In this document: positions 198 to 12,399 of the stretch, piece by piece
Position numbering within the stretch: the stretch's first letter is position 1
Layout: each line of letters begins with the position of its first letter
From: a virus
UHGV virus genome: UHGV-1779463
Direction: 5' to 3' (one strand)
Length of the DNA: 12,399 nt
The notes under the pieces: model-generated
Seen by the model: only the letters and a program-made list of their open reading frames with translations
Told to the model about the DNA's origin: nothing
The model's database searches: none
Translations under genes and position numbers: made by a program

Positions 198-824
198 TTA
201 TTCTGATTTTACGACTGACAGCTCACTTTTTATACGGTAGTAAGTCGCTCGGCTGATTCCTGCTGCCTTCATGATGAGTTCAGGTTTTACTCCTTGCTCC
301 AACATCTCTCTAACGATCTCTCGGGCTTCCTGATTTTTCTCCCTGCCAATGTATATTCCTTCGCTTTTAGCTCGCTCAATGCCTTGCTGTTGGCGTTTAC
401 GACGTGTTTCGTAATCCTGCCGTGCCATTGTGGCAAGGATATCAATCAACATGGCATTTACGGCTCTCAGGATGCCGCTGGTTAGGTCATTGCCTGCCAT
501 CTCGACCATCTGCCAGCTCGTTGGTAAATCCATTGATACGATGATTAACCCTTTTCGGTTGAGCGTATCTTTCAGTTCGACCCATGCGCTATGTTCTAGG
601 CGACTCAGACGATCTATAGCTTCCACTAGCAACAGATCGCCGGACTGGGCTTCAGACAATAGCCGCATAAGCTCTACGCGCTCAAGCTTCGCCCCGCTAG
701 CATTTTCTATATACTCTCCTGCAATCTGCCAGCCTTTTGATTTTGAAAATTCACGTAGGCTGGTAAGTGCTCGATCAGCGTGTTGCCCCTCAGTTGATGC
801 TCGGCAGTAAATTCTAACGTTCAT
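198..824 (-). CDS. Serine recombinase (resolvase/invertase family) with C-terminal HTH
   Basis: 208-aa ORF. N-terminal YCRASTEGQ matches the catalytic-serine motif of small serine recombinases; LLVEAIDRLSR matches the conserved D-R-L-x-R segment; C-terminal GISRATYYRI is HTH-like. Start has a weak GAGA Shine-Dalgarno; stop TAA at 198-200. Confidence 0.9.
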   Translation of the reverse strand: MNVRIYCRASTEGQHADRALTSLREFSKSKGWQIAGEYIENASGAKLERVELMRLLSEAQSGDLLLVEAIDRLSRLEHSAWVELKDTLNRKGLIIVSMDLPTSWQMVEMAGNDLTSGILRAVNAMLIDILATMARQDYETRRKRQQQGIERAKSEGIYIGREKNQEAREIVREMLEQGVKPELIMKAAGISRATYYRIKSELSVVKSE

Positions 825-830
825 TGCATT

Positions 831-1080
831 GTCTCAATAGGGTTGTGAATATAAGTGCAAATGATACATAATGCATTTTGTGTAGTCAAAATGTTCCTAT
901 ACAACCCTATTGAGACTTTGTATCACCTTGTCATTACGGTATACCCTATTGAGAGGGGGATGATAGCTGGTAGTTCCGGTTTACCGTTAATCAGGCATAA
1001 CGCAAATTTGCGTTATGCCTCAAACATCAATGTTTACTCTTCCAACTGCCGCTATCTTGCTGGTTCTTGATAACCCTACT
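831..1080. repeat. Cluster of at least four copies of an AACCCTAYTGAGA-like motif upstream of the serine recombinase
   Basis: 831-846 gtctcaatagggttgt is the exact reverse complement of 901-916 acaaccctattgagac (16 bp). A direct 12-bp copy accctattgaga lies at 943-954 and a degenerate copy aaccctact at 1072-1080. The first copy overlaps the recombinase ribosome-binding region. Confidence 0.7.
993..1020. promoter_or_regulatory. 28-bp perfect palindrome, candidate protein-binding site
   Basis: aggcataacgcaaa / tttgcgttatgcct is exactly self-complementary (14+14 bp). No T-tract follows on either strand, so it is unlikely to be an intrinsic terminator. Confidence 0.45.
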
Positions 1081-1803: not shown

Positions 1804-2133
1804 ATGGATTTTTTAACAAGTACTCTGCTATCAGGAATACTCTATGATGGGTTTAAGAACGGCGTTGCAATAACTACAGGTTTCTTGAAAGAAAAGCTAC
1901 ATGGATGGATTGTTGACGATACTTTATTGGAGACTTTAGCTTATAAAGTAAATACTCTTGAGCTTAAGGATTATGGAGAGCATGTTATCGAGCGAAAATT
2001 GAACGAATCATCAGAAATACAGCAAATTTTAAAACTGATTCAGCCTGAGCAAAACACGAATATTGGGTCAGTGACTCAGAATCACAGTGGTTCTGGTGAT
2101 AACATTATTGGAAACAAAAATATATACAAATAG
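1804..2133 (+). CDS. Small protein (109 aa) with a hydrophobic N-terminal segment and a C-terminal motif HSGSGDNIIGNKNIYK shared with the downstream gene
   Basis: Strong Shine-Dalgarno (aaggggggg) 3-5 nt upstream of the ATG. AT-rich like the downstream large ORF. The C-terminal motif is repeated at the N-terminus of ORF 2146-5430 with many synonymous nucleotide differences, implying protein-level conservation. Confidence 0.7.
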   Translation: MDFLTSTLLSGILYDGFKNGVAITTGFLKEKLHGWIVDDTLLETLAYKVNTLELKDYGEHVIERKLNESSEIQQILKLIQPEQNTNIGSVTQNHSGSGDNIIGNKNIYK

Positions 2134-2145
2134 AAGAAATGGACG

Positions 2146-5100
2146 ATGATGGTAGATCAAATACACAGTGGCGTAGGTGACAATATCATAGGTGATAAAT
2201 ACGAATATATAATTCGTAGTATTAAATCTAGGGATCTGCGGACTGTTATAGACAGTATAATGAGAGATATTTGCTATAGAGAATTAGGCAGAGTTCGTGA
2301 AAAGCTAGACGTTCTTAATAATATTCATTCATTAGAAAATGATGTATATCTACTATTGAATGCTTTGAATGTAAAGCTTGAGTTGGTAAAAGGCTCGATA
2401 TCATCATCAAAAAATGATCTTCTAAAATTGCTACAGAACAATGACCTCCCTGGTGATGTTCGTGAGGTCATTACATCTATATTGATCGATTTGGAATCGA
2501 GAACCTCTGAAGAGTTAGCTAAAAAAAGATATTCAGATTTAAAAATAGATGGGTTCTATCTCAAAGAGGTGTTCTTTGAGCGATTAGCCTCAATGGAAGA
2601 GCTATCTAAAAGCTATCATAACACAGAGGTTTATGATTTATCCGAGCAAGAGTTAACTGGATTAGTTCGCGGTGCTTTAAGAGTCCAAGATTTTGTTTTT
2701 GCGTTTGAACTGGCTCAGAATCTGGATAAGTATTATTCATCCAATAATTCAAGGATTCTTCGGCTATACACTGAAACCTGTTTACTCATAACTCGAAACC
2801 AACGTAATCATTATGTTTCACTTAGTAAACAGGAAAAAGATAATGTTGACCGGTTAATAATCCAATTACTAGCTGATATTGATGACGGAAAAGATGATAG
2901 ATATATCGCTGTTTTAACCAATTTGCTTAAACTTACCTATTTTTCAGATAGTCGACTTTATAATTTAGGAAAGTTGCATATTGATAAAGTTAGGGAGATA
3001 GACTCCTTTTCTGCGGAGTATCTAGAGCAGTCCTCAATAGGAATGAGCACTCCCGATATTAAATTTGAATTAGTATCTGATGTTTTGGATTTGGAAAAGT
3101 TTTCATTTCTTATTTTTGCTATTGAGAATAATCAGATGAAAGCTAAAGACGTAAATAACTGGATAGACAATGGAGGGATAATTGAAACAGGAGATGATTA
3201 TATTAATTCCTTCTTGAACTTGTACCTTAGGGCGCTAGTATGTTCGGTTGACGATAAGAATGAAATCCAACTGCTGGATAAAAAAGCGCAAGATTTTTTA
3301 GAATTAGATTCTAAAAAGTTTATGCTAATAAACCCTGCGAACATATTAAACTTATGCGATAAATTTATTTTATGTAATTTACCATTGAACGCGGTTAATT
3401 ATCTCACCCCATTGTTATCTGATGAAGCTTGGGTATCTCCGATTTTCGAATGTTATCTTAACGCTCTATTTCTCAGTGATAAGATTGATTTATTTTTAAA
3501 TAAAATAAAGCACTTAGAACCATGCGATAAAACAGAGCTAATTTATTTAAGAGAAGCCCAAGTGTACGACCGATTAGATGAATATGAGCTATCAATAAAA
3601 TCGATCAGATTTGCAATTGAAATTTCACCAAACAACCCTTATTCCTGGTACTTATTGCTGCACACATCAAGAAAAAATGGGGGGGATGCGCAATTTCTTA
3701 AAGAAATTGTTTTTGAGATCCCAGAAGTTATTTTTTCTACCTACGATGAGTCAAAGATCACATTAGTTAATGAAATAGCGACTTATATTGATATACACAT
3801 TGCGGAGAGAGTGCTTGTTGATTGGTTTGTCCAAAACCCAGTAAAAGTGGCAAAGCCTTTGACCCAGATTCACGCAAACTCATTGATAAATAGCCAAAAA
3901 GTTAATAGTAATCCACTTGTCCCTAATAAGTGTGGGGATGGTATTACATATTCTGATGGGTTTGAAACATTTACCCGAATTCTTGTACGTGACGTTGAGG
4001 CTAGTCATCCGTGCTTGTTGGAAATAGAGTCACCACTTGGACAGATTCTCGAGAATATGCAGGAAGGAGATTGTTCTGGTGACTTTACAATGATTAAGCG
4101 TGTGCCTCCTTACGTCGCAGTATTTAGGCAGGCTGTGGAGCTTCGCAGTAAAGGTAACGATGGTACTGATGTTTTCAGACAATTTTCTCTACCTCCTCAT
4201 GAAGAGGAATTCATTCCTTATTTTGAGAATATTCTAAAACGATATTCTACGAAAGATAAAGAAAGGGATGCAGTATTGCATACCCCCAATATACCTTTAA
4301 CGATGAAAGGCAATTTTACGGATCCTACAGACCCTGTAAGAGGGGCTATAACACATTTAACGTCAATTACATCAACCAAATATTTGGAGTTATTCAATAG
4401 TGGAGAAGAAACACCAAATAAGGTAATTATTGATGTGTATACGGCTGTTTATTTCTCATTAATGGGTTTTTCTTCAGCTGTAGTAGATTCGAATATAGAA
4501 ATAATTGTATGTAAATATACAAAGCAAGTATTGGAAGGGTGGATTGAAAATATTCTAAGAGAAGACTACATGTCTATAGGTGTATCTGATAAAGGACTTT
4601 ATAGAGTCACATCTGAAGATATTCGAAGGGATTCATGTGATTTTATTCATAATCTCCAGATATTACTTGAATTTGTAACAGTAGAACCGCTGAAACCAGC
4701 AGATACACCAGAGTTATTAGTTAAAGTAAGAGATTTGGTTGATTGGGCTGTTTACTCTACCTTCCAGCTTTCTATAGCAAATAGTATCCCATTGCTTAGC
4801 ATTGACCATTTGATGTGTGAATTAGCGTATAGTTCAGAGTATCCAACGGCAAATATGAATTCCTTTGTCATGAGGATTTTAAACTCTTTATCTTTGCCGG
4901 AAAGAAAAAAAAGCATTCAAACTAACTTATCTTCGGGTACACCTGTTCCAATTTTGTATGATGATATATTATATCTCAGCCGCTCAGCAGAAATTTCTGA
5001 TACATACTTAGTATTCAAGTTTATGGAAAAATATGGAGAAACCATTTCTGCAACAGGATCTTCTCTAAACTACCTAACTGCAATTGTGAGAAACGTAACA

Positions 5101-5430
5101 GTGATGGCTTGCATAGATGGAGCTATTTTAGCTGGTGGTAGAGCACACAATCCACGGTATGATGGATATGTTGAGCATGTTTTTAATTATTGCTGTCGCT
5201 CTGCAATAGTTAATCTGGATGGTGAAACTGCTGAACAAAGATTAGCATTACTAATCTATAATGTAATAGATATGCCTCGAAGAGTTCGTAAATACTTGGA
5301 ATTGATATCATTGCTGACTACTGAGTTCACAATAGGACATTTTCTGGATATTAAAGCATGTAATGAGAGCCTGGTTGCTTGTCAGAATGGTAAAAAAATA
5401 GATGAGCAAGGGAGTATTGAAGCAAGTTAA
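2146..5430 (+). CDS. Large uncharacterised protein (1094 aa), AT-rich, with TPR-like helical repeats and no P-loop; candidate sensor/effector of a defence-type system
   Basis: A 3.3-kb ORF with no antisense ORF of 60 aa or more. N-terminus IHSGVGDNIIGDKYEY repeats the C-terminal motif of the upstream ORF. TPR-like segment around ELIYLREAQVYDRLDEYELSIKSIRFAIEISPNNPYSWYLLL. No GxxxxGK[ST] found on manual scan. Weak ribosome-binding site; starts 12 nt after the upstream stop in the same frame. Confidence 0.9.
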   Translation: MMVDQIHSGVGDNIIGDKYEYIIRSIKSRDLRTVIDSIMRDICYRELGRVREKLDVLNNIHSLENDVYLLLNALNVKLELVKGSISSSKNDLLKLLQNNDLPGDVREVITSILIDLESRTSEELAKKRYSDLKIDGFYLKEVFFERLASMEELSKSYHNTEVYDLSEQELTGLVRGALRVQDFVFAFELAQNLDKYYSSNNSRILRLYTETCLLITRNQRNHYVSLSKQEKDNVDRLIIQLLADIDDGKDDRYIAVLTNLLKLTYFSDSRLYNLGKLHIDKVREIDSFSAEYLEQSSIGMSTPDIKFELVSDVLDLEKFSFLIFAIENNQMKAKDVNNWIDNGGIIETGDDYINSFLNLYLRALVCSVDDKNEIQLLDKKAQDFLELDSKKFMLINPANILNLCDKFILCNLPLNAVNYLTPLLSDEAWVSPIFECYLNALFLSDKIDLFLNKIKHLEPCDKTELIYLREAQVYDRLDEYELSIKSIRFAIEISPNNPYSWYLLLHTSRKNGGDAQFLKEIVFEIPEVIFSTYDESKITLVNEIATYIDIHIAERVLVDWFVQNPVKVAKPLTQIHANSLINSQKVNSNPLVPNKCGDGITYSDGFETFTRILVRDVEASHPCLLEIESPLGQILENMQEGDCSGDFTMIKRVPPYVAVFRQAVELRSKGNDGTDVFRQFSLPPHEEEFIPYFENILKRYSTKDKERDAVLHTPNIPLTMKGNFTDPTDPVRGAITHLTSITSTKYLELFNSGEETPNKVIIDVYTAVYFSLMGFSSAVVDSNIEIIVCKYTKQVLEGWIENILREDYMSIGVSDKGLYRVTSEDIRRDSCDFIHNLQILLEFVTVEPLKPADTPELLVKVRDLVDWAVYSTFQLSIANSIPLLSIDHLMCELAYSSEYPTANMNSFVMRILNSLSLPERKKSIQTNLSSGTPVPILYDDILYLSRSAEISDTYLVFKFMEKYGETISATGSSLNYLTAIVRNVTVMACIDGAILAGGRAHNPRYDGYVEHVFNYCCRSAIVNLDGETAEQRLALLIYNVIDMPRRVRKYLELISLLTTEFTIGHFLDIKACNESLVACQNGKKIDEQGSIEAS

Positions 5431-5537: not shown

Positions 5538-6020
5538 TATTCCTAACGTCCGCTTTAGGCACAGCCGACTGCCAGGTACTGCCAGGTAAGGTATCAATAT
5601 CGCCCGTCTGACCTGAGGATCATCATTGGATTTATTTTTGGGATGGTTAAGTAACATGTTAAAGGAAACTAACTCAGGTACAATTATGCAAAAAATTGCT
5701 TCTATGTGGTTTAAATTCACGACTGAGATTTCTACGTGAATTCAACCTAAGAAATACCGGTAAAATCGCTTATAAAGTTGATGTTATGTTGATGGTTTTT
5801 TTCTGGGGTTTTGATTGCCAGATATCTCTATTGGATTGTTTTTTATGTAATTAATGATGAGCTTAAGCGATGCCTGCTAACGTCAACACATTCTTATAAA
5901 GTGATTAATTTCTATAAGTACTTTTTCTAAAAAATTGATTTTTACGGATGGATGCCCATCAATGGAAAATCATTTTTTTCTAAGACTTTGATCTTTTATT
6001 GATGGTGTTAGTTGGGACTC

Positions 6021-8595: not shown

Positions 8596-9307
8596 CGTAC
8601 TTATCCAAAGCGTTCGTTAGCAATCTCCGAAATGTATCTGGGTGGGTATCGCTGTCTTCATCGTTCCCGAATATTATGTTGTTTTCTATTACTTGGGCAC
8701 TAACCCTATTGATACTAAGGTTTCCTCCACTATGGAAATCTTTGCTTGATTCAAATAAGGCAATCGCCATTCCGGCGATCATCTTTAAAGCCGTATCTTT
8801 TCCTCTCCAGTTTTGTTCTCTTTCTACTTTTTTTGACAGTGCTCCAATTTCTGGTTCGTTATCTGGAACATTCATATCCAGTTCTGGAAAGAAGTTCACA
8901 ACCTCGGATCGCTTGAAATAAAACGAATCGTAAGACCCATACCAATCATCCTCATCATCGTGATATAAAAAGTCTTCTCCTTTCCTAACGTTGAAAGTCC
9001 CTTCTTCCCCCGGTATCGGGCTCTCCCTGTATTCATGCCCCATAGCCAGAAGACCTAAAAACTCCACACACTGCTTTTCAAAGTCTTCATTTGTCGTAAA
9101 ACCAGATACCCAATCGAACTGATAAAAGCCCAGCCCCCCTAAAGTATCTGGTTTAGTCTTGCTCAATCTGTAGTTACTTAAGATAGCGGCAGCTATCATT
9201 CTTTCATTTTCATTGTTTAGTCTTGCCAGTTCGCTGATCAGATTACCAAACCAGATTTTATCTTCTGACTCGTTATAAAACGCATCTAGTCCTGTCATCT
9301 TAGTCAC
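8552..9307 (-). CDS. Hypothetical protein (251 aa), translationally coupled to the integrase
   Basis: Long ORF. Probable GTG start at 9305-9307 with Shine-Dalgarno gaaggagaa, overlapping the integrase stop by 8 nt (alternative ATG at 9296-9298). Acidic, aromatic-rich sequence with no recognisable motif. Confidence 0.65.
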   Translation of the reverse strand: MTKMTGLDAFYNESEDKIWFGNLISELARLNNENERMIAAAILSNYRLSKTKPDTLGGLGFYQFDWVSGFTTNEDFEKQCVEFLGLLAMGHEYRESPIPGEEGTFNVRKGEDFLYHDDEDDWYGSYDSFYFKRSEVVNFFPELDMNVPDNEPEIGALSKKVEREQNWRGKDTALKMIAGMAIALFESSKDFHSGGNLSINRVSAQVIENNIIFGNDEDSDTHPDTFRRLLTNALDKYAPKFKNKATKKRPK

Positions 9308-10622
9308 GGCGTGTTCTCCTTCCGAACTCGTAAGGGCTTATGTGTATTTCTCGATTGGCGTCCAGATAATCTGCCCACCATTGAAGCATTAGTTTGCGCT
9401 CTTCTAAGTAATCAGCCTTGTGCTTGTAGGCTCTTTTAACGTCTTTATATTCTTTGTGGCTCATCTGGCGCTCTACTGCGTCCTCCTGCCACAAACCGGA
9501 CTCCATCAGGGAACTACAGGCTGTGGCACGGAATCCATGTCCAGTTACGTCCTCTTGCGTGTTATAGCCCATTAAGCGTAATGCCTTGTTTACCGTGTTT
9601 TCACTCATCACGCCTTTGGTGTTTCTTTCATTCGGAAACACAACATCGTAGCTTCCGCTTAGTTCTCTCAACTGCTTTACAATAGAAACAGCCTGACGGC
9701 TAAGAAGCACGATATGTTCGTCTTTTCCCGTCTTTGTGCCACGGGTGGAAAACCTCACACCATCGATAGGCTCTCTTTTTTTAGGGATAATCCACTCAGC
9801 CCGATCAAGGTCAAACTCTTTCCAACGGGCAAACCTTAACTCGCTTGAACGAACAAAGGTCAACATGGTTAGCTCAATGGCAAGGCGGGTAAGAGGATTA
9901 CCTTTAAAGCTGCCCAATCGAGTGAAAAAGTCTGGTAAATCTCTGGGATGTAGTGCGGCATGATGCTTAGTTTCATATTGCATTAACCGGACATCGAGAT
10001 CATTCGTGATGATTTCTGTCTTAATGCCGCTCAGACGGGCGCTATGTATGATGTCCTTAACTCGTTGTTTAAGTCGGTTGGCTGTATCGTGTTTCCCGGC
10101 GTCATCTACCTTCTTAAACAAAGGTAAAATTGTCATCGCCTCCAGTTTGCGAATATCCGAAGTGCCAATGTGAGGGAAAATATACATTTCAAGGCTTCTA
10201 AGTACGCGTTTTCGGTGGGCTTCGTTCCACATCTGGTGGCTTTCAACCCATTGACGTCCTATTGTCTCAAAAGTGAATGCACCTTTTTCTTCTGCTTTTG
10301 CTGCTCTTTGCTCTGCTTTGGGATCTATCCCCTTGACTAACAACTTTTTGGCGTTGTCTCGTTTTTCTCTGGCGTCTTGTAAGCTAATGGTTGGATAAGC
10401 CAGTTTGCTAGCCGGGTTTAAGGTGATACCGATCGCCGCAACATTGATGATGGCGTTCTGTGCGCTGGTTGGATTTGCCAGTGCTGTTTTAGCCAGGTAA
10501 TCGTTTTTCTGGAAATACTGAATTGCAAACTGGCTTTCCTTAGCCCATGTCACCGTCTGTTCAGTCAATGCTCCGCAGAATAACTGCTCCTGCTGTTTAA
10601 CGAATTCAACGATATTGCTCAT
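9300..10622 (-). CDS. int: Tyrosine recombinase / phage integrase (P4-like family) with a non-canonical N-terminal ~75 aa
   Basis: C-terminal catalytic signatures are present: VRSSELR (box I Arg), HGFRATACS (H-x-x-R), and RAYKHKADYLEERKLMLQWWADYLD (catalytic Tyr and the MxQ-WADYLD hallmark). The N-terminal arm-binding region is replaced by unrelated sequence. Shine-Dalgarno GGAG 8 nt upstream; ATGA overlap with the upstream ORF. Confidence 0.9.
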   Translation of the reverse strand: MSNIVEFVKQQEQLFCGALTEQTVTWAKESQFAIQYFQKNDYLAKTALANPTSAQNAIINVAAIGITLNPASKLAYPTISLQDAREKRDNAKKLLVKGIDPKAEQRAAKAEEKGAFTFETIGRQWVESHQMWNEAHRKRVLRSLEMYIFPHIGTSDIRKLEAMTILPLFKKVDDAGKHDTANRLKQRVKDIIHSARLSGIKTEIITNDLDVRLMQYETKHHAALHPRDLPDFFTRLGSFKGNPLTRLAIELTMLTFVRSSELRFARWKEFDLDRAEWIIPKKREPIDGVRFSTRGTKTGKDEHIVLLSRQAVSIVKQLRELSGSYDVVFPNERNTKGVMSENTVNKALRLMGYNTQEDVTGHGFRATACSSLMESGLWQEDAVERQMSHKEYKDVKRAYKHKADYLEERKLMLQWWADYLDANREIHISPYEFGRRTRRD

Positions 10623-10930
10623 GCAGCTTCTCCAAAAATGTGTCTGCGTTTGAATATTGCGAAGGCATATTCAGCCTTAACTCTTTCGGTTATTGCATCC
10701 CAGAACCATTCAGCGGCTTTTTCCTGATAGTTACAGTCATCATCTTCCAGCCAGTCGATAGCGTCCTTAGTGTGTTCATCTGGTTTATATGAGCGAAGCA
10801 TTTCGCTTATTGGGTCGCAACGTTTGCAGAGGCGATCAACTTCACTGTTGATTCGTTCGTAATCTTCATCAGTAAAACTTGCGATTATTTGCGATATTTC
10901 ACGCTTATCATTCAGAGTCAGAATCATCAT
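10619..10930 (-). CDS. Hypothetical phage protein (103 aa)
   Basis: Strong Shine-Dalgarno (acaggagaaag before the ATG); its TGA stop overlaps the integrase-ORF ATG. Acidic protein of unknown function. Confidence 0.6.
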   Translation of the reverse strand: MMILTLNDKREISQIIASFTDEDYERINSEVDRLCKRCDPISEMLRSYKPDEHTKDAIDWLEDDDCNYQEKAAEWFWDAITERVKAEYAFAIFKRRHIFGEAA

Positions 10931-11011
10931 CTTTCTCCTGTTCTTTGTGCTGATTGAGCATTTTGTTCATCTGACGAATGAATTCTTCGTCTGACCAGTT
11001 ATCTGTAAAAC

Positions 11012-11182
11012 TCATGGACGGCCTTGTTGTTTCAAAATATCCCAAAGCTTTTCGAGCAAACTTTTCATTCTTGGTTGTTTAAAGTCTGCTCCGGTTAAAA
11101 TATTTTTTCGTGAATGCTGTACCGATAAAATCGGGTTGAAAGGGCGAACCGATGCCGCCCCTGCAATAGCGAACTGTTGCAT
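11012..11182 (-). CDS. Hypothetical small protein (56 aa from the internal ATG; the ORF track extends it to 11287)
   Basis: The internal ATG at 11180-11182 is preceded by a strong Shine-Dalgarno (GGAG about 7 nt upstream). The longer 91-aa form begins with a Cys-rich, hydrophobic stretch and has no ribosome-binding site. Confidence 0.45.
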   Translation of the reverse strand: MQQFAIAGAASVRPFNPILSVQHSRKNILTGADFKQPRMKSLLEKLWDILKQQGRP

Positions 11183-11365
11183 AGGATGCTCCTTCTGTTT
11201 GATTGCATAACGAAAACGCCTCGAGTGAAGCGTTATTGGTATGCATATAAAAAGGCCCTCACACTGGAGGGCAAAGAAGATTTCCAATAATCAGAACAAG
11301 TCGGCTCCTGTTTAGTTACGAGCGACATTGCTCACATAGCAGACTCGCAAATCTACTATAGGTGC

Positions 11366-11524
11366 TTATTCGCATCGCATGACAACATCAAATTTTTCGA
11401 GATTACTTTGTCGCAACAATCCCTCTTCTACGCGGTCAGCTTTTCTATAATTATCAAATTCGAAATGTTTAATTACTTCTTTCGTTTCTCGCTCTATAAC
11501 TTCAACGATGTATTTCTTATTCAT
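11366..11524 (-). CDS. Hypothetical small protein (52 aa), not in the supplied ORF track
   Basis: Hand translation gives MNKKYIVEVIERETKEVIKHFEFDNYRKADRVEEGLLRQSNLEKFDVVMRCE. Shine-Dalgarno AGGTGA 6 nt upstream; its ATG overlaps the stop of the upstream gene by one nucleotide. Confidence 0.4.
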   Translation of the reverse strand: MNKKYIVEVIERETKEVIKHFEFDNYRKADRVEEGLLRQSNLEKFDVVMRCE

Positions 11525-11820
11525 TACTCATCACCTATGGCTTTTCTGATTGCTGCGAGACCTTTATTAACAGCTCCATACCATTCTGGATATGTTGTCG
11601 TTGTTCTATTTTTGGTTTGCTTAAGTAATAACTGAAGTGCTTCGAGAAGGTCAGGTGCTGCCGCTATTAGATTGGCATCTTCAATGCATTGAACTTCCTC
11701 ACAGATTGCAATATACGAACGCCAGCCTGCGCCATTTTCAAGTGAGTCTGCCTGGATTATTTTAATCTCATCGTCATCCATCATTATTTCCCACTTACCT
11801 TCAGTACCTTTAAATTCCAT
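11524..11820 (-). CDS. Small phage protein (about 98 aa) with an AAPDLLEAL motif, reminiscent of Ead/Ea22-like early proteins
   Basis: The ATG at 11818-11820 has a GAGG Shine-Dalgarno 6 nt upstream; the ORF-track extension to 11940 overlaps the upstream gene and passes through a terminator-like hairpin. The family name is recalled from the motif, not verified. Confidence 0.55.
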   Translation of the reverse strand: MEFKGTEGKWEIMMDDDEIKIIQADSLENGAGWRSYIAICEEVQCIEDANLIAAAPDLLEALQLLLKQTKNRTTTTYPEWYGAVNKGLAAIRKAIGDE

Positions 11821-11840
11821 GTTAGCCTCTGTTGTTAGTG

Positions 11841-11868
11841 CCAAAAATAAAGGCCGACTATGCGGCCT
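11841..11868 (-). terminator. Intrinsic-terminator-like hairpin after the 156-aa gene
   Basis: Minus strand reads AGGCCG-CATAGT-CGGCCT followed by TTATTTTTGG: a 6-bp GC-rich stem, 6-nt loop and T-tract. The stem overlaps the TAG stop at 11867-11869. Confidence 0.45.
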
Positions 11869-12337
11869 AGTAGAATACCCAATTTTCTGTTTCTTGGTTG
11901 TGTCCAAAGTTATATTCAATATCTGGTGTTGATGTATCAATATTCTTCATCCCATCAACAAGAGTTGATACAACAGCCAAATCTTGTTTGATTCTCATTA
12001 AATGGTATTTCTTCCGGCGCAATAAACTCTCAATGGCAAGTTTCTTCGTTGGGAATGCAAAAGATCTTTCTGCATTTTTTGCTACTTTCTTAATTGCATA
12101 TCTATTTCTCCTTTGTTTCCATTCCCGTAACCACTGATTTGGTGCTGGTTTAAAATCAACAATCCAATGCGCAGGAACCAACCATGCATAATGCTCTGTC
12201 TGATGAAAAGCTATATATTGAAGTGCGAATATTTTGATTCCATCTTCTTCAACTGTCGCTTGGAATCTCCAGAAAACAGGCATTCCATCATGTTCAGTTT
12301 CTGATTCAGGAAAAGGTACGCTCCATGATTTTGTCAT
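11867..12337 (-). CDS. Hypothetical phage protein (156 aa)
   Basis: Strong Shine-Dalgarno (GAGGTGA 3-4 nt before the ATG); protein-like composition; followed by a terminator-like hairpin. Confidence 0.6.
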   Translation of the reverse strand: MTKSWSVPFPESETEHDGMPVFWRFQATVEEDGIKIFALQYIAFHQTEHYAWLVPAHWIVDFKPAPNQWLREWKQRRNRYAIKKVAKNAERSFAFPTKKLAIESLLRRKKYHLMRIKQDLAVVSTLVDGMKNIDTSTPDIEYNFGHNQETENWVFY

Positions 12338-12399
12338 ATCTCACCTCAAATAAGTGGTTTGCTGCCTAATTTCATTTTCTGGCGACCAACACAAGTCAT

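Follow-up and report, generated by a model that had tools for sequence, protein, structure and literature searches.

The repeated motifs upstream of the serine recombinase gene are most probably the six 12-bp half-sites (consensus TMTCAWTWGGGT) of a three-subsite res site that serves this small serine recombinase in the style of Tn3, with autoregulation and a probable role in the resolution of multimers or tandem copies. The window in which they lie (the whole 12.4-kb stretch of DNA analysed) represents an integrative island of ~10 kb that is located at argW, a tRNA-Arg gene of E. coli. The recombinase/res module is carried by ~10% of complete E. coli genomes, and in this island it ends 135 bp from the att repeat. 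The island also encodes the GapS6a/GapS6b anti-phage system, whose name comes from the GMT-island preprint, and a rolling-circle Rep protein. Past the Rep gene there are, in this order, small AlpA-type and excisionase-like genes, an ORF of 251 aa and a tyrosine integrase gene. We found no description of the argW island or of this recombinase clade in the literature. The main features, in window coordinates, are:

38-63: att repeat, a 26-bp repeat of the tRNA 3' end
198-824, minus strand: serine recombinase of the resolvase type, 208 aa
832-954, minus strand: predicted res site, 123 bp; in the recombinase sense, site I, 13 bp, site II, 17 bp, site III, 7 nt, ATG
832-866: predicted site III, 35 bp (12+11+12 bp); 832-843 is an exact motif copy, and 855-866 contains the -10 hexamer
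861-889, minus strand: predicted recombinase promoter, with -35 TTGACT (889-884), a 17-nt spacer and -10 TATCAT (866-861)
884-915: predicted site II, 32 bp (12+8+12 bp); 904-915 is an exact motif copy, and 884-895 is degenerate and holds the -35 hexamer
929-954: predicted site I, the presumed crossover site, TGTCATTACGGT-AT-ACCCTATTGAGA (12+2+12 bp; 28 bp counting one flanking base per side)
1188-1394: small ORF, 68 aa, first on the cargo side
1804-5430: GapS6a and GapS6b, anti-phage system
6184-7236: rolling-circle Rep (PF23343)
9300-10622: tyrosine integrase

Anatomy of the predicted res site and its promoter

The preliminary description of this DNA had reported a 16-bp inverted repeat, and we found this repeat to be perfect, with GTCTCAATAGGGTTGT at 831-846, ACAACCCTATTGAGAC at 901-916 and 54 nt between the arms. 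It had also listed a direct copy at 943-954, which proved to be an exact copy of the 12-mer ACCCTATTGAGA. The window contains three exact copies of this 12-mer and no more, at 832-843 (minus strand), 904-915 (plus strand) and 943-954 (plus strand), all within the region under study; together with the inverted repeat they span 124 bp. We estimate that a given 12-mer is expected ~0.0015 times by chance in 24.8 kb of two-strand sequence, and three copies are far above this value. Three degenerate partner half-sites that had previously gone unlisted pair with the exact copies to form three predicted dimer sites. The partner at 929-940 matches the consensus TMTCAWTWGGGT at 10 of 12 positions and the exact 12-mer at 9 of 12, the partner at 884-895 matches the corresponding half-site of relatives, ACCCTATTGACT, at 9 of 12, and the partner at 855-866 matches the consensus TMTCAWTWGGGT at 9 of 12. 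Half of the six half-sites are thus degenerate in the window; they are clear in relatives. The earlier reading of the copies as subsites was right in proposing a multi-subsite res site, but each exact copy corresponds to one half-site of a different subsite: the copy in site I forms its outer half, that in site II the distal half and that in site III the half nearest to the gene.

A further, degenerate copy (AACCCTACT) had been proposed at 1072-1080. These letters are present, but we found no support for them as a site. Matches to the motif with up to three mismatches are not enriched in the window over shuffled sequences (14 observed versus 10.7 expected; 56 versus 62.7 in a second scan). The copy lies outside of the block that is conserved in relatives, has no GGTATACC centre and is missing from Citrobacter L004, the closest relative with the same type of flank. 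By these comparisons, the functional element ends at about 954-955 rather than at 1080. The segment at 1073-1091 is identical to 943-961 at 15 of 19 positions, which cover the outer half of site I and a GGGGGAT flank, and near this segment the window has ~98 bp more than the other E. coli flank types. It may be a decayed duplicate or an insertion scar at site I, or the resemblance may be due to chance.

The predicted res site is located directly upstream of the recombinase gene and ends 7 nt before its start codon at 824. Read in the recombinase sense (954 to 929), site I is TCTCAATAGGGT-AT-ACCGTAATGACA, with a palindromic centre, GGTATACC, at 938-945 (GGT-AT-ACC). From the mechanism of the gamma-delta and Tn3 resolvases, a staggered cut is predicted at the central A941-T942. 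Site II (915 to 884) is TCTCAATAGGGT-8 bp-AACATTTTGACT. The second half of this site is ACCCTATTGACT in the relatives L005, L007, L008 and L011, where it forms a near-perfect palindrome with the first half. Site III (866 to 832) is TATCATTTGCAC-11 bp-ACCCTATTGAGA, and its half at 832-843 covers the 5' UTR and a Shine-Dalgarno-like GAGA. In relatives, the half of site III that overlaps the -10 hexamer is TATCATTTGGGT or TATCATTAGGGT; its TCTC is kept even where the -10 hexamer differs (L007, L008, L010), and the 35-bp span of the site is constant. The centres of sites I and II (941.5 and 899.5) are 42 bp or 4.0 helical turns apart, and this distance does not vary among the 12 aligned sequences. 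It is an integral number of turns and lies within the range of 4-7 helical turns that is typical for these two sites (PMC12217951).

A promoter scan predicted a sigma-70 promoter for the recombinase gene that matches the consensus at 10 of 12 hexamer positions, the best score in the interval 780-1260. Both hexamers are conserved in relatives. Site II overlaps the -35 hexamer, and site III overlaps the -10 hexamer and the ribosome-binding site. The earlier proposal of a multi-subsite, res-type site that overlaps the promoter and the translation start of the recombinase gene is therefore borne out by the predicted sigma-70 promoter, by the conserved architecture and by co-variation with the recognition helix of the recombinase, described below.

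The arms of the 16-bp inverted repeat bracket this promoter, and the plus strand of 825-925 folds at -39 kcal/mol (z = -7). Both features would suit an RNA hairpin (an attenuator or stability element), and the position of the arms would also suit an invertible promoter switch, but we give these two readings almost no credence. Across 12 relatives the arms pair at 73.4% of positions compared with 72.7% after shuffling of columns, and 201 of 500 shuffles scored as high. There is thus no co-variation, and the complementarity of the arms is explained by the shared motif rather than by pairing. The upstream arm also lies beyond the -35 hexamer, outside of the recombinase mRNA, and an Rfam search returned no match. 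With regard to a switch, each arm is a single half-site that has no crossover centre, and the promoter has the same orientation in all 19 scorable loci among 20 from E. coli and Citrobacter. In the twentieth, L105 from O157:H7 strain F8492, the res site is split by IS1203 between site II and site I (4094-5400).

The recombinase, its relatives and known systems

The recombinase scored 83.4 bits against the N-terminal catalytic domain PF00239 of Pfam (cut-off 23.3). Its catalytic residues are R8, S10, D71, R72 and R75, and its YxRxS and DRLxR motifs align to S10, D67, R68 and R71 of the gamma-delta resolvase. None of the 25 homologues compared differs at the catalytic Ser, Arg and Asp. At the C-terminus is a helix-turn-helix, GISRATYYRIK, that aligns to those of Sin and gamma-delta; homologues with 59-68% identity carry PF02796. 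The nearest solved structures are those of Sin/Tn552 Bin3 (E 1.5e-15), followed by the gamma-delta and Tn3 resolvases, with an alignment over the full length that includes the catalytic Ser and DRLxR. Judged by its domain, residues, helix-turn-helix and length, the protein is a full-length member of the small serine recombinase (resolvase/invertase) family.

We compared ~80 homologous loci, found in species-representative genomes, and made anchored and MAFFT alignments of 12 enterobacterial relatives with 58-97% protein identity, in which the upstream regions were anchored on the shared palindrome. Invariant blocks at fixed spacing were present in the 12 aligned sequences (TCTC, GGTATACC, GT.NCA.T, T.TTGA, T.T..T and G.GA). 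The invariant columns fall on the ends and cores of half-sites, on the GGTATACC centre and on the promoter hexamers (TTGA of the -35 and positions of the -10). The GGTATACC centre is found at -98 to -155 in relatives with as little as ~45% protein identity, from alpha-, beta- and gamma-proteobacteria. An exact copy is present in 25 of 81 loci, compared with an expectation, by our estimate, of ~0.0015 per locus. Within the 16-kb loci of relatives, half-sites with at most one mismatch are almost confined to the res site.

The outer motif of the half-sites, of four to six nucleotides, varies by clade together with the predicted recognition helix of the recombinase, and the centre is constant. The pairs of recognition helix and outer motif are:

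GISRATxYRIK: TCTC/GAGA
GCSRSTLxRLAKR: GTTC/GAAC
CSTTTVLxIRD: TGATA
PASTSTVYAVQ: TATCG/CGATA
DCSxGMVAKVK: TTCAC/TGAAA

Such a pattern would arise if the helix-turn-helix recognised the outer part of the half-site and the conserved catalytic domain and arm contacted the centre. The protein encoded by the small ORF at 1188-1394 was also considered as the binding protein and was rejected; the ORF is confined to islands of E. coli, Citrobacter and Kluyvera, but the architecture of the site tracks the recombinase across phyla. In the alpha- and beta-proteobacterial loci L030 and L034, the gene-proximal subsite, ~130 bp upstream of the recombinase start, seems to consist of direct repeats of CGAACC rather than of an inverted pair, an arrangement reminiscent of site II of Sin.

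The overlap of sites II and III with the -35 hexamer, the -10 hexamer and the ribosome-binding site is also what an operator would show, and the module has been kept beside islands that have decayed, such as that of O157. The motifs could then be an operator only, for a protein that has become an autorepressor or a repressor of a neighbouring gene and no longer recombines DNA. We regard this as very unlikely. Repression would not require site I, which is upstream of the promoter, and yet no element of the region is more conserved than the centre of this site. In addition, the family shows no variation in the catalytic Ser, Arg and Asp.

By its sequence, the res site is of the Tn3/gamma-delta type with a probably autoregulated resolvase. 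The TnpR proteins of Tn3 and gamma-delta (Tn1000), which act at a 114-bp res, are likewise small serine recombinases with a length of ~200 aa and a helix-turn-helix at the C-terminus. In these systems too, res is directly upstream of the gene and has three subsites that each consist of two inverted 12-bp half-sites; the subsite most distant from the gene is site I, which is ~28 bp long and has a central AT; the outer end of the half-site (T-G/C-T-C here) resembles TGTC; and a promoter lies under the site, an arrangement that would lead to autoregulation. The two systems differ in that the protein similarity is weak (phmmer E ~1e-10) and in the dimensions of the site. The canonical Tn3/gamma-delta subsites are 28, 34 and 25 bp long with spacers of 22 and 5 bp, whereas here the subsites are 26-28, 32 and 35 bp long with spacers of 13 and 17 bp. 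The geometry of the synaptosome can therefore not simply be assumed. In our alignments, these subsite dimensions and the GGTATACC centre mark the clade. Tn3-family transposons have an adjacent DDE transposase (TnpA) and 38-bp terminal inverted repeats. In contrast, we found neither a transposase nor terminal inverted repeats near the module, and no Tn3 transposase beside the recombinase in the E. coli islands or the sampled relatives. The idea that the module is a relic of a Tn3 transposon was rejected, as no transposase occurs in any sampled context.

The best-scoring solved structure, Sin (Tn552 Bin3), acts at resH and is likewise a resolvase, from a plasmid or transposon, with a crossover site and a regulatory site. 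The res of Sin has two subsites, of which site II consists of direct repeats, along with an HU/IHF-type bend, whereas the argW island res is predicted to have three inverted-pair subsites. The Hin, Gin and Pin invertases are also small serine recombinases and use 26-bp (12+2+12) crossover sites, but their reaction depends on an enhancer and on a pair of crossover sites in inverted orientation; the loci examined here have one site each and do not vary in orientation. A further known group is formed by plasmid resolvases annotated as acting on multimers, such as RP4 ParA and those encoded by the res genes of the IncX3 and IncN type. Thousands of plasmid recombinases are 42-47% identical to the protein. 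The IncX3 homologue adjoins a partition ATPase, and its upstream region has no GGTATACC centre. An 82%-identical recombinase with the same res architecture is encoded by an IncFIB plasmid.

In its setting, the module resembles the resolution system of SGI1 most closely. Upstream of the SGI1 resolvase gene (Res/S027) is a res of the Tn3-like kind with three boxes; EMSA and resolution assays showed that Res binds to the boxes and that the system removes island multimers, and rapidly so when restored (PMC12217951). Both elements are integrative islands, SGI1 self-replicating and the argW island presumably so, with a resolvase gene near the right end, a three-box res upstream of it and variable cargo immediately upstream of the res (PMC12217951). 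SGI1 differs in being integrated at trmE and mobilised by IncC plasmids, in the size of its boxes (28, 30 and 25 bp) and in that its cargo, In104, sits inside res and inactivates it (PMC12217951); in the argW island the res is intact and the cargo lies beyond it. The principle of a res site with an autoregulated resolvase is textbook knowledge, and the module is an ordinary system of this kind in a new family. Like SGI1, the small argW island with its GAPS6 anti-phage system thus has a putative multimer-resolution and autoregulation module of its own. The predicted assignments at base-pair level (AT at 941-942, six half-sites and a promoter), for a resolvase clade that is uncharacterised and widespread, make binding and resolution experiments straightforward.

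Copy number, orientation and proposed mechanism

Among 5426 complete E. coli genomes, the res site is present in 548-550, once per genome and always beside the recombinase gene. The GGTATACC centre is single-copy in each 16-kb locus wherever it is exact, except in L005, which has a second copy ~5 kb downstream. The preliminary description had suggested looking for a second matching site that would define an invertible or excisable segment; there is none, the centre being unique in the window and in nearly all loci. Nor is the motif a widespread repetitive element, as the res site occurs once per genome and beside this gene alone. The single site and single orientation exclude an inversion switch and a cassette that is excised in cis. 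They fit a resolution site, since resolution needs a second copy of the whole element.

We considered one candidate for a partner site in cis, at 8687-8714 within the 251-aa ORF. It reads TATTACTTGGGC-ACTA-ACCCTATTGATA (12+4+12 bp), of which 8703-8714 is a perfect consensus half-site and the inverted partner at 8687-8698 matches at 9 of 12 positions. This candidate is absent from the diverged backbone alleles of L101 and L102, which carry the same res site, and we therefore take it to be due to chance. In strain G47-1 the 251-aa ORF is interrupted by IS3 (L001 22897-24157).

We infer a mechanism that involves recombinase binding, cleavage at A941-T942, resolution and repression of the promoter. 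Dimers of the recombinase would bind to sites I, II and III. Two copies of the res site in direct repeat on one supercoiled molecule would then synapse via the accessory sites II and III, and the dimers at site I would cut the central AT of GGT-AT-ACC, rotate and religate the DNA, with the result that the intervening DNA is deleted. Because there is one res site per island, the natural substrates would be dimers or multimers of the excised circle replicated by Rep, or tandem arrays of the island at argW, and the products would be monomers. Binding at sites II and III would also repress the near-consensus promoter, leading to autoregulation of the resolvase.

By analogy with known resolvases, the res site probably resolves multimers or tandem copies of an island that has a rolling-circle replication gene. 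Traits of multimer resolution that we observed are the presence of this Rep gene (PF23343) and the single copy of the res site per genome; the island also holds an integrase gene and an AlpA-like gene. Relatives of the recombinase are found in integrative or plasmid settings, which agree with this role; neighbours are integrases, primase-like genes (VapE/DUF5906), ParA-type partition genes and a REP_ORF2-G2P protein, and one copy with the same res site is that of the IncFIB plasmid. In an unrelated element (L096, 9375-10064), an 81%-identical recombinase is encoded near a REP_ORF2-G2P/YagK-like protein, which suggests that this resolvase clade and Reps of this type may repeatedly occur together. 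The module is still found next to a decayed island in O157:H7 and may, in some hosts, be a relic that has no current function.

The cargo slot next to the res site

The res site coincides with the left edge of a variable cargo slot. This slot begins at 955, lies between the res site and the Rep/ori region and ends where homology resumes at ~5710-5877; a sensitive blastn search shifted this right boundary to ~5710-5727. The block formed by the recombinase gene and the res site (41-954) is joined to at least six unrelated cargos in otherwise near-identical islands. These encode GapS6a/b, a pair of 821-aa and 330-aa proteins, a 470-aa protein (in O157:H7), an AAA ATPase, an HNH endonuclease and a ParA-like protein. 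Thus, the left edge of a defence-cargo hotspot in about one tenth of complete E. coli genomes is pinned to a defined, putative recombination site, which makes a part of site-specific recombination in the shuffling of defence cargos directly testable.

The preliminary description had suggested that the motifs are the recombination or control site for the adjacent cargo module. Control of the cargo was not supported. At 1108-1136 there is a conserved, promoter-like block that belongs to the cargo, and this block contains no consensus half-site with two or fewer mismatches and a single match with three mismatches, which is at the level of chance. A role of the res site in cargo exchange is possible. 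If two elements in one cell had res sites of the same family, a site-specific crossover between them at site I would exchange everything on the cargo side, and the res site would then double as a junction for the swapping of modules. We consider this unlikely, but several observations favour it, among them the joining of one recombinase/res block to so many cargos. The window and L003 (strain Ec42) are 100% identical over 81-946 and then drop to 30-50% identity, with the drop starting inside the outer half of site I. In two pairs of loci with the same recombinase allele, L101/L103 and L002/L102, the first difference is 3 nt beyond site I. L003 and L103 have the same cargo next to different recombinase alleles, which puts a breakpoint rightward of 872. 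For transposons of the Tn21 type, exchange at res is documented. Against this reading, a breakpoint would also appear at the edge of the conserved block after homologous recombination within that block, and there is no res-like site at the right cargo boundary (~5710-5877), so a second, different mechanism would be needed. A candidate at 5825-5836 matches at 9 of 12 positions, has no partner half-site and was rejected, such matches occurring at chance frequency. The mapping of breakpoints draws on few independent events and haplotypes, another recombinase allele having given two contigs. Moreover, intermolecular reactions are normally disfavoured by resolvase synapses (PMC12217951).

In a broader and likewise doubtful proposal, the resolvase gene, the res site, the promoter block at 1098-1136 and the small ORF would form a fixed docking edge of a defence-gene slot, where crossover at site I between co-resident islands or plasmids of this family would be one means of swapping entire anti-phage cargos. 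If true, this would be a serine-recombinase counterpart of integron-style or Tn21-style module exchange in ~10% of E. coli genomes.

The short block at 1098-1136 is common to all cargo types. It contains a promoter-like CCGACA-17-GATAAT with an upstream TG and is located upstream of the small ORF and the cargo. From its sequence and position, it is probably a backbone promoter that drives whatever cargo is present. The alleles of the small ORF in L002, L003 and L004 are 47-48% identical despite an identical adjacent recombinase. Between the res site and this promoter there is a perfect 28-bp palindrome at 993-1020 (AGGCATAACGCAAATTTGCGTTATGCCT), common to the window and Citrobacter L004, with no run of Ts on either strand. 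A similar hairpin, followed by Ts, is present at the far end of the cargo in L003 (~21065-21095).

At the other end of the island, the tyrosine integrase gene is a hybrid. It is identical to the integrase gene of the island in strain G47-1 up to 10397. From 10398 to 12399 the window contains lambdoid-prophage DNA (kil/RecT neighbourhood), ~98% identical to many E. coli prophages, instead of the tRNA-Arg gene. The island appears to be fused to a prophage that occupies the same argW site.
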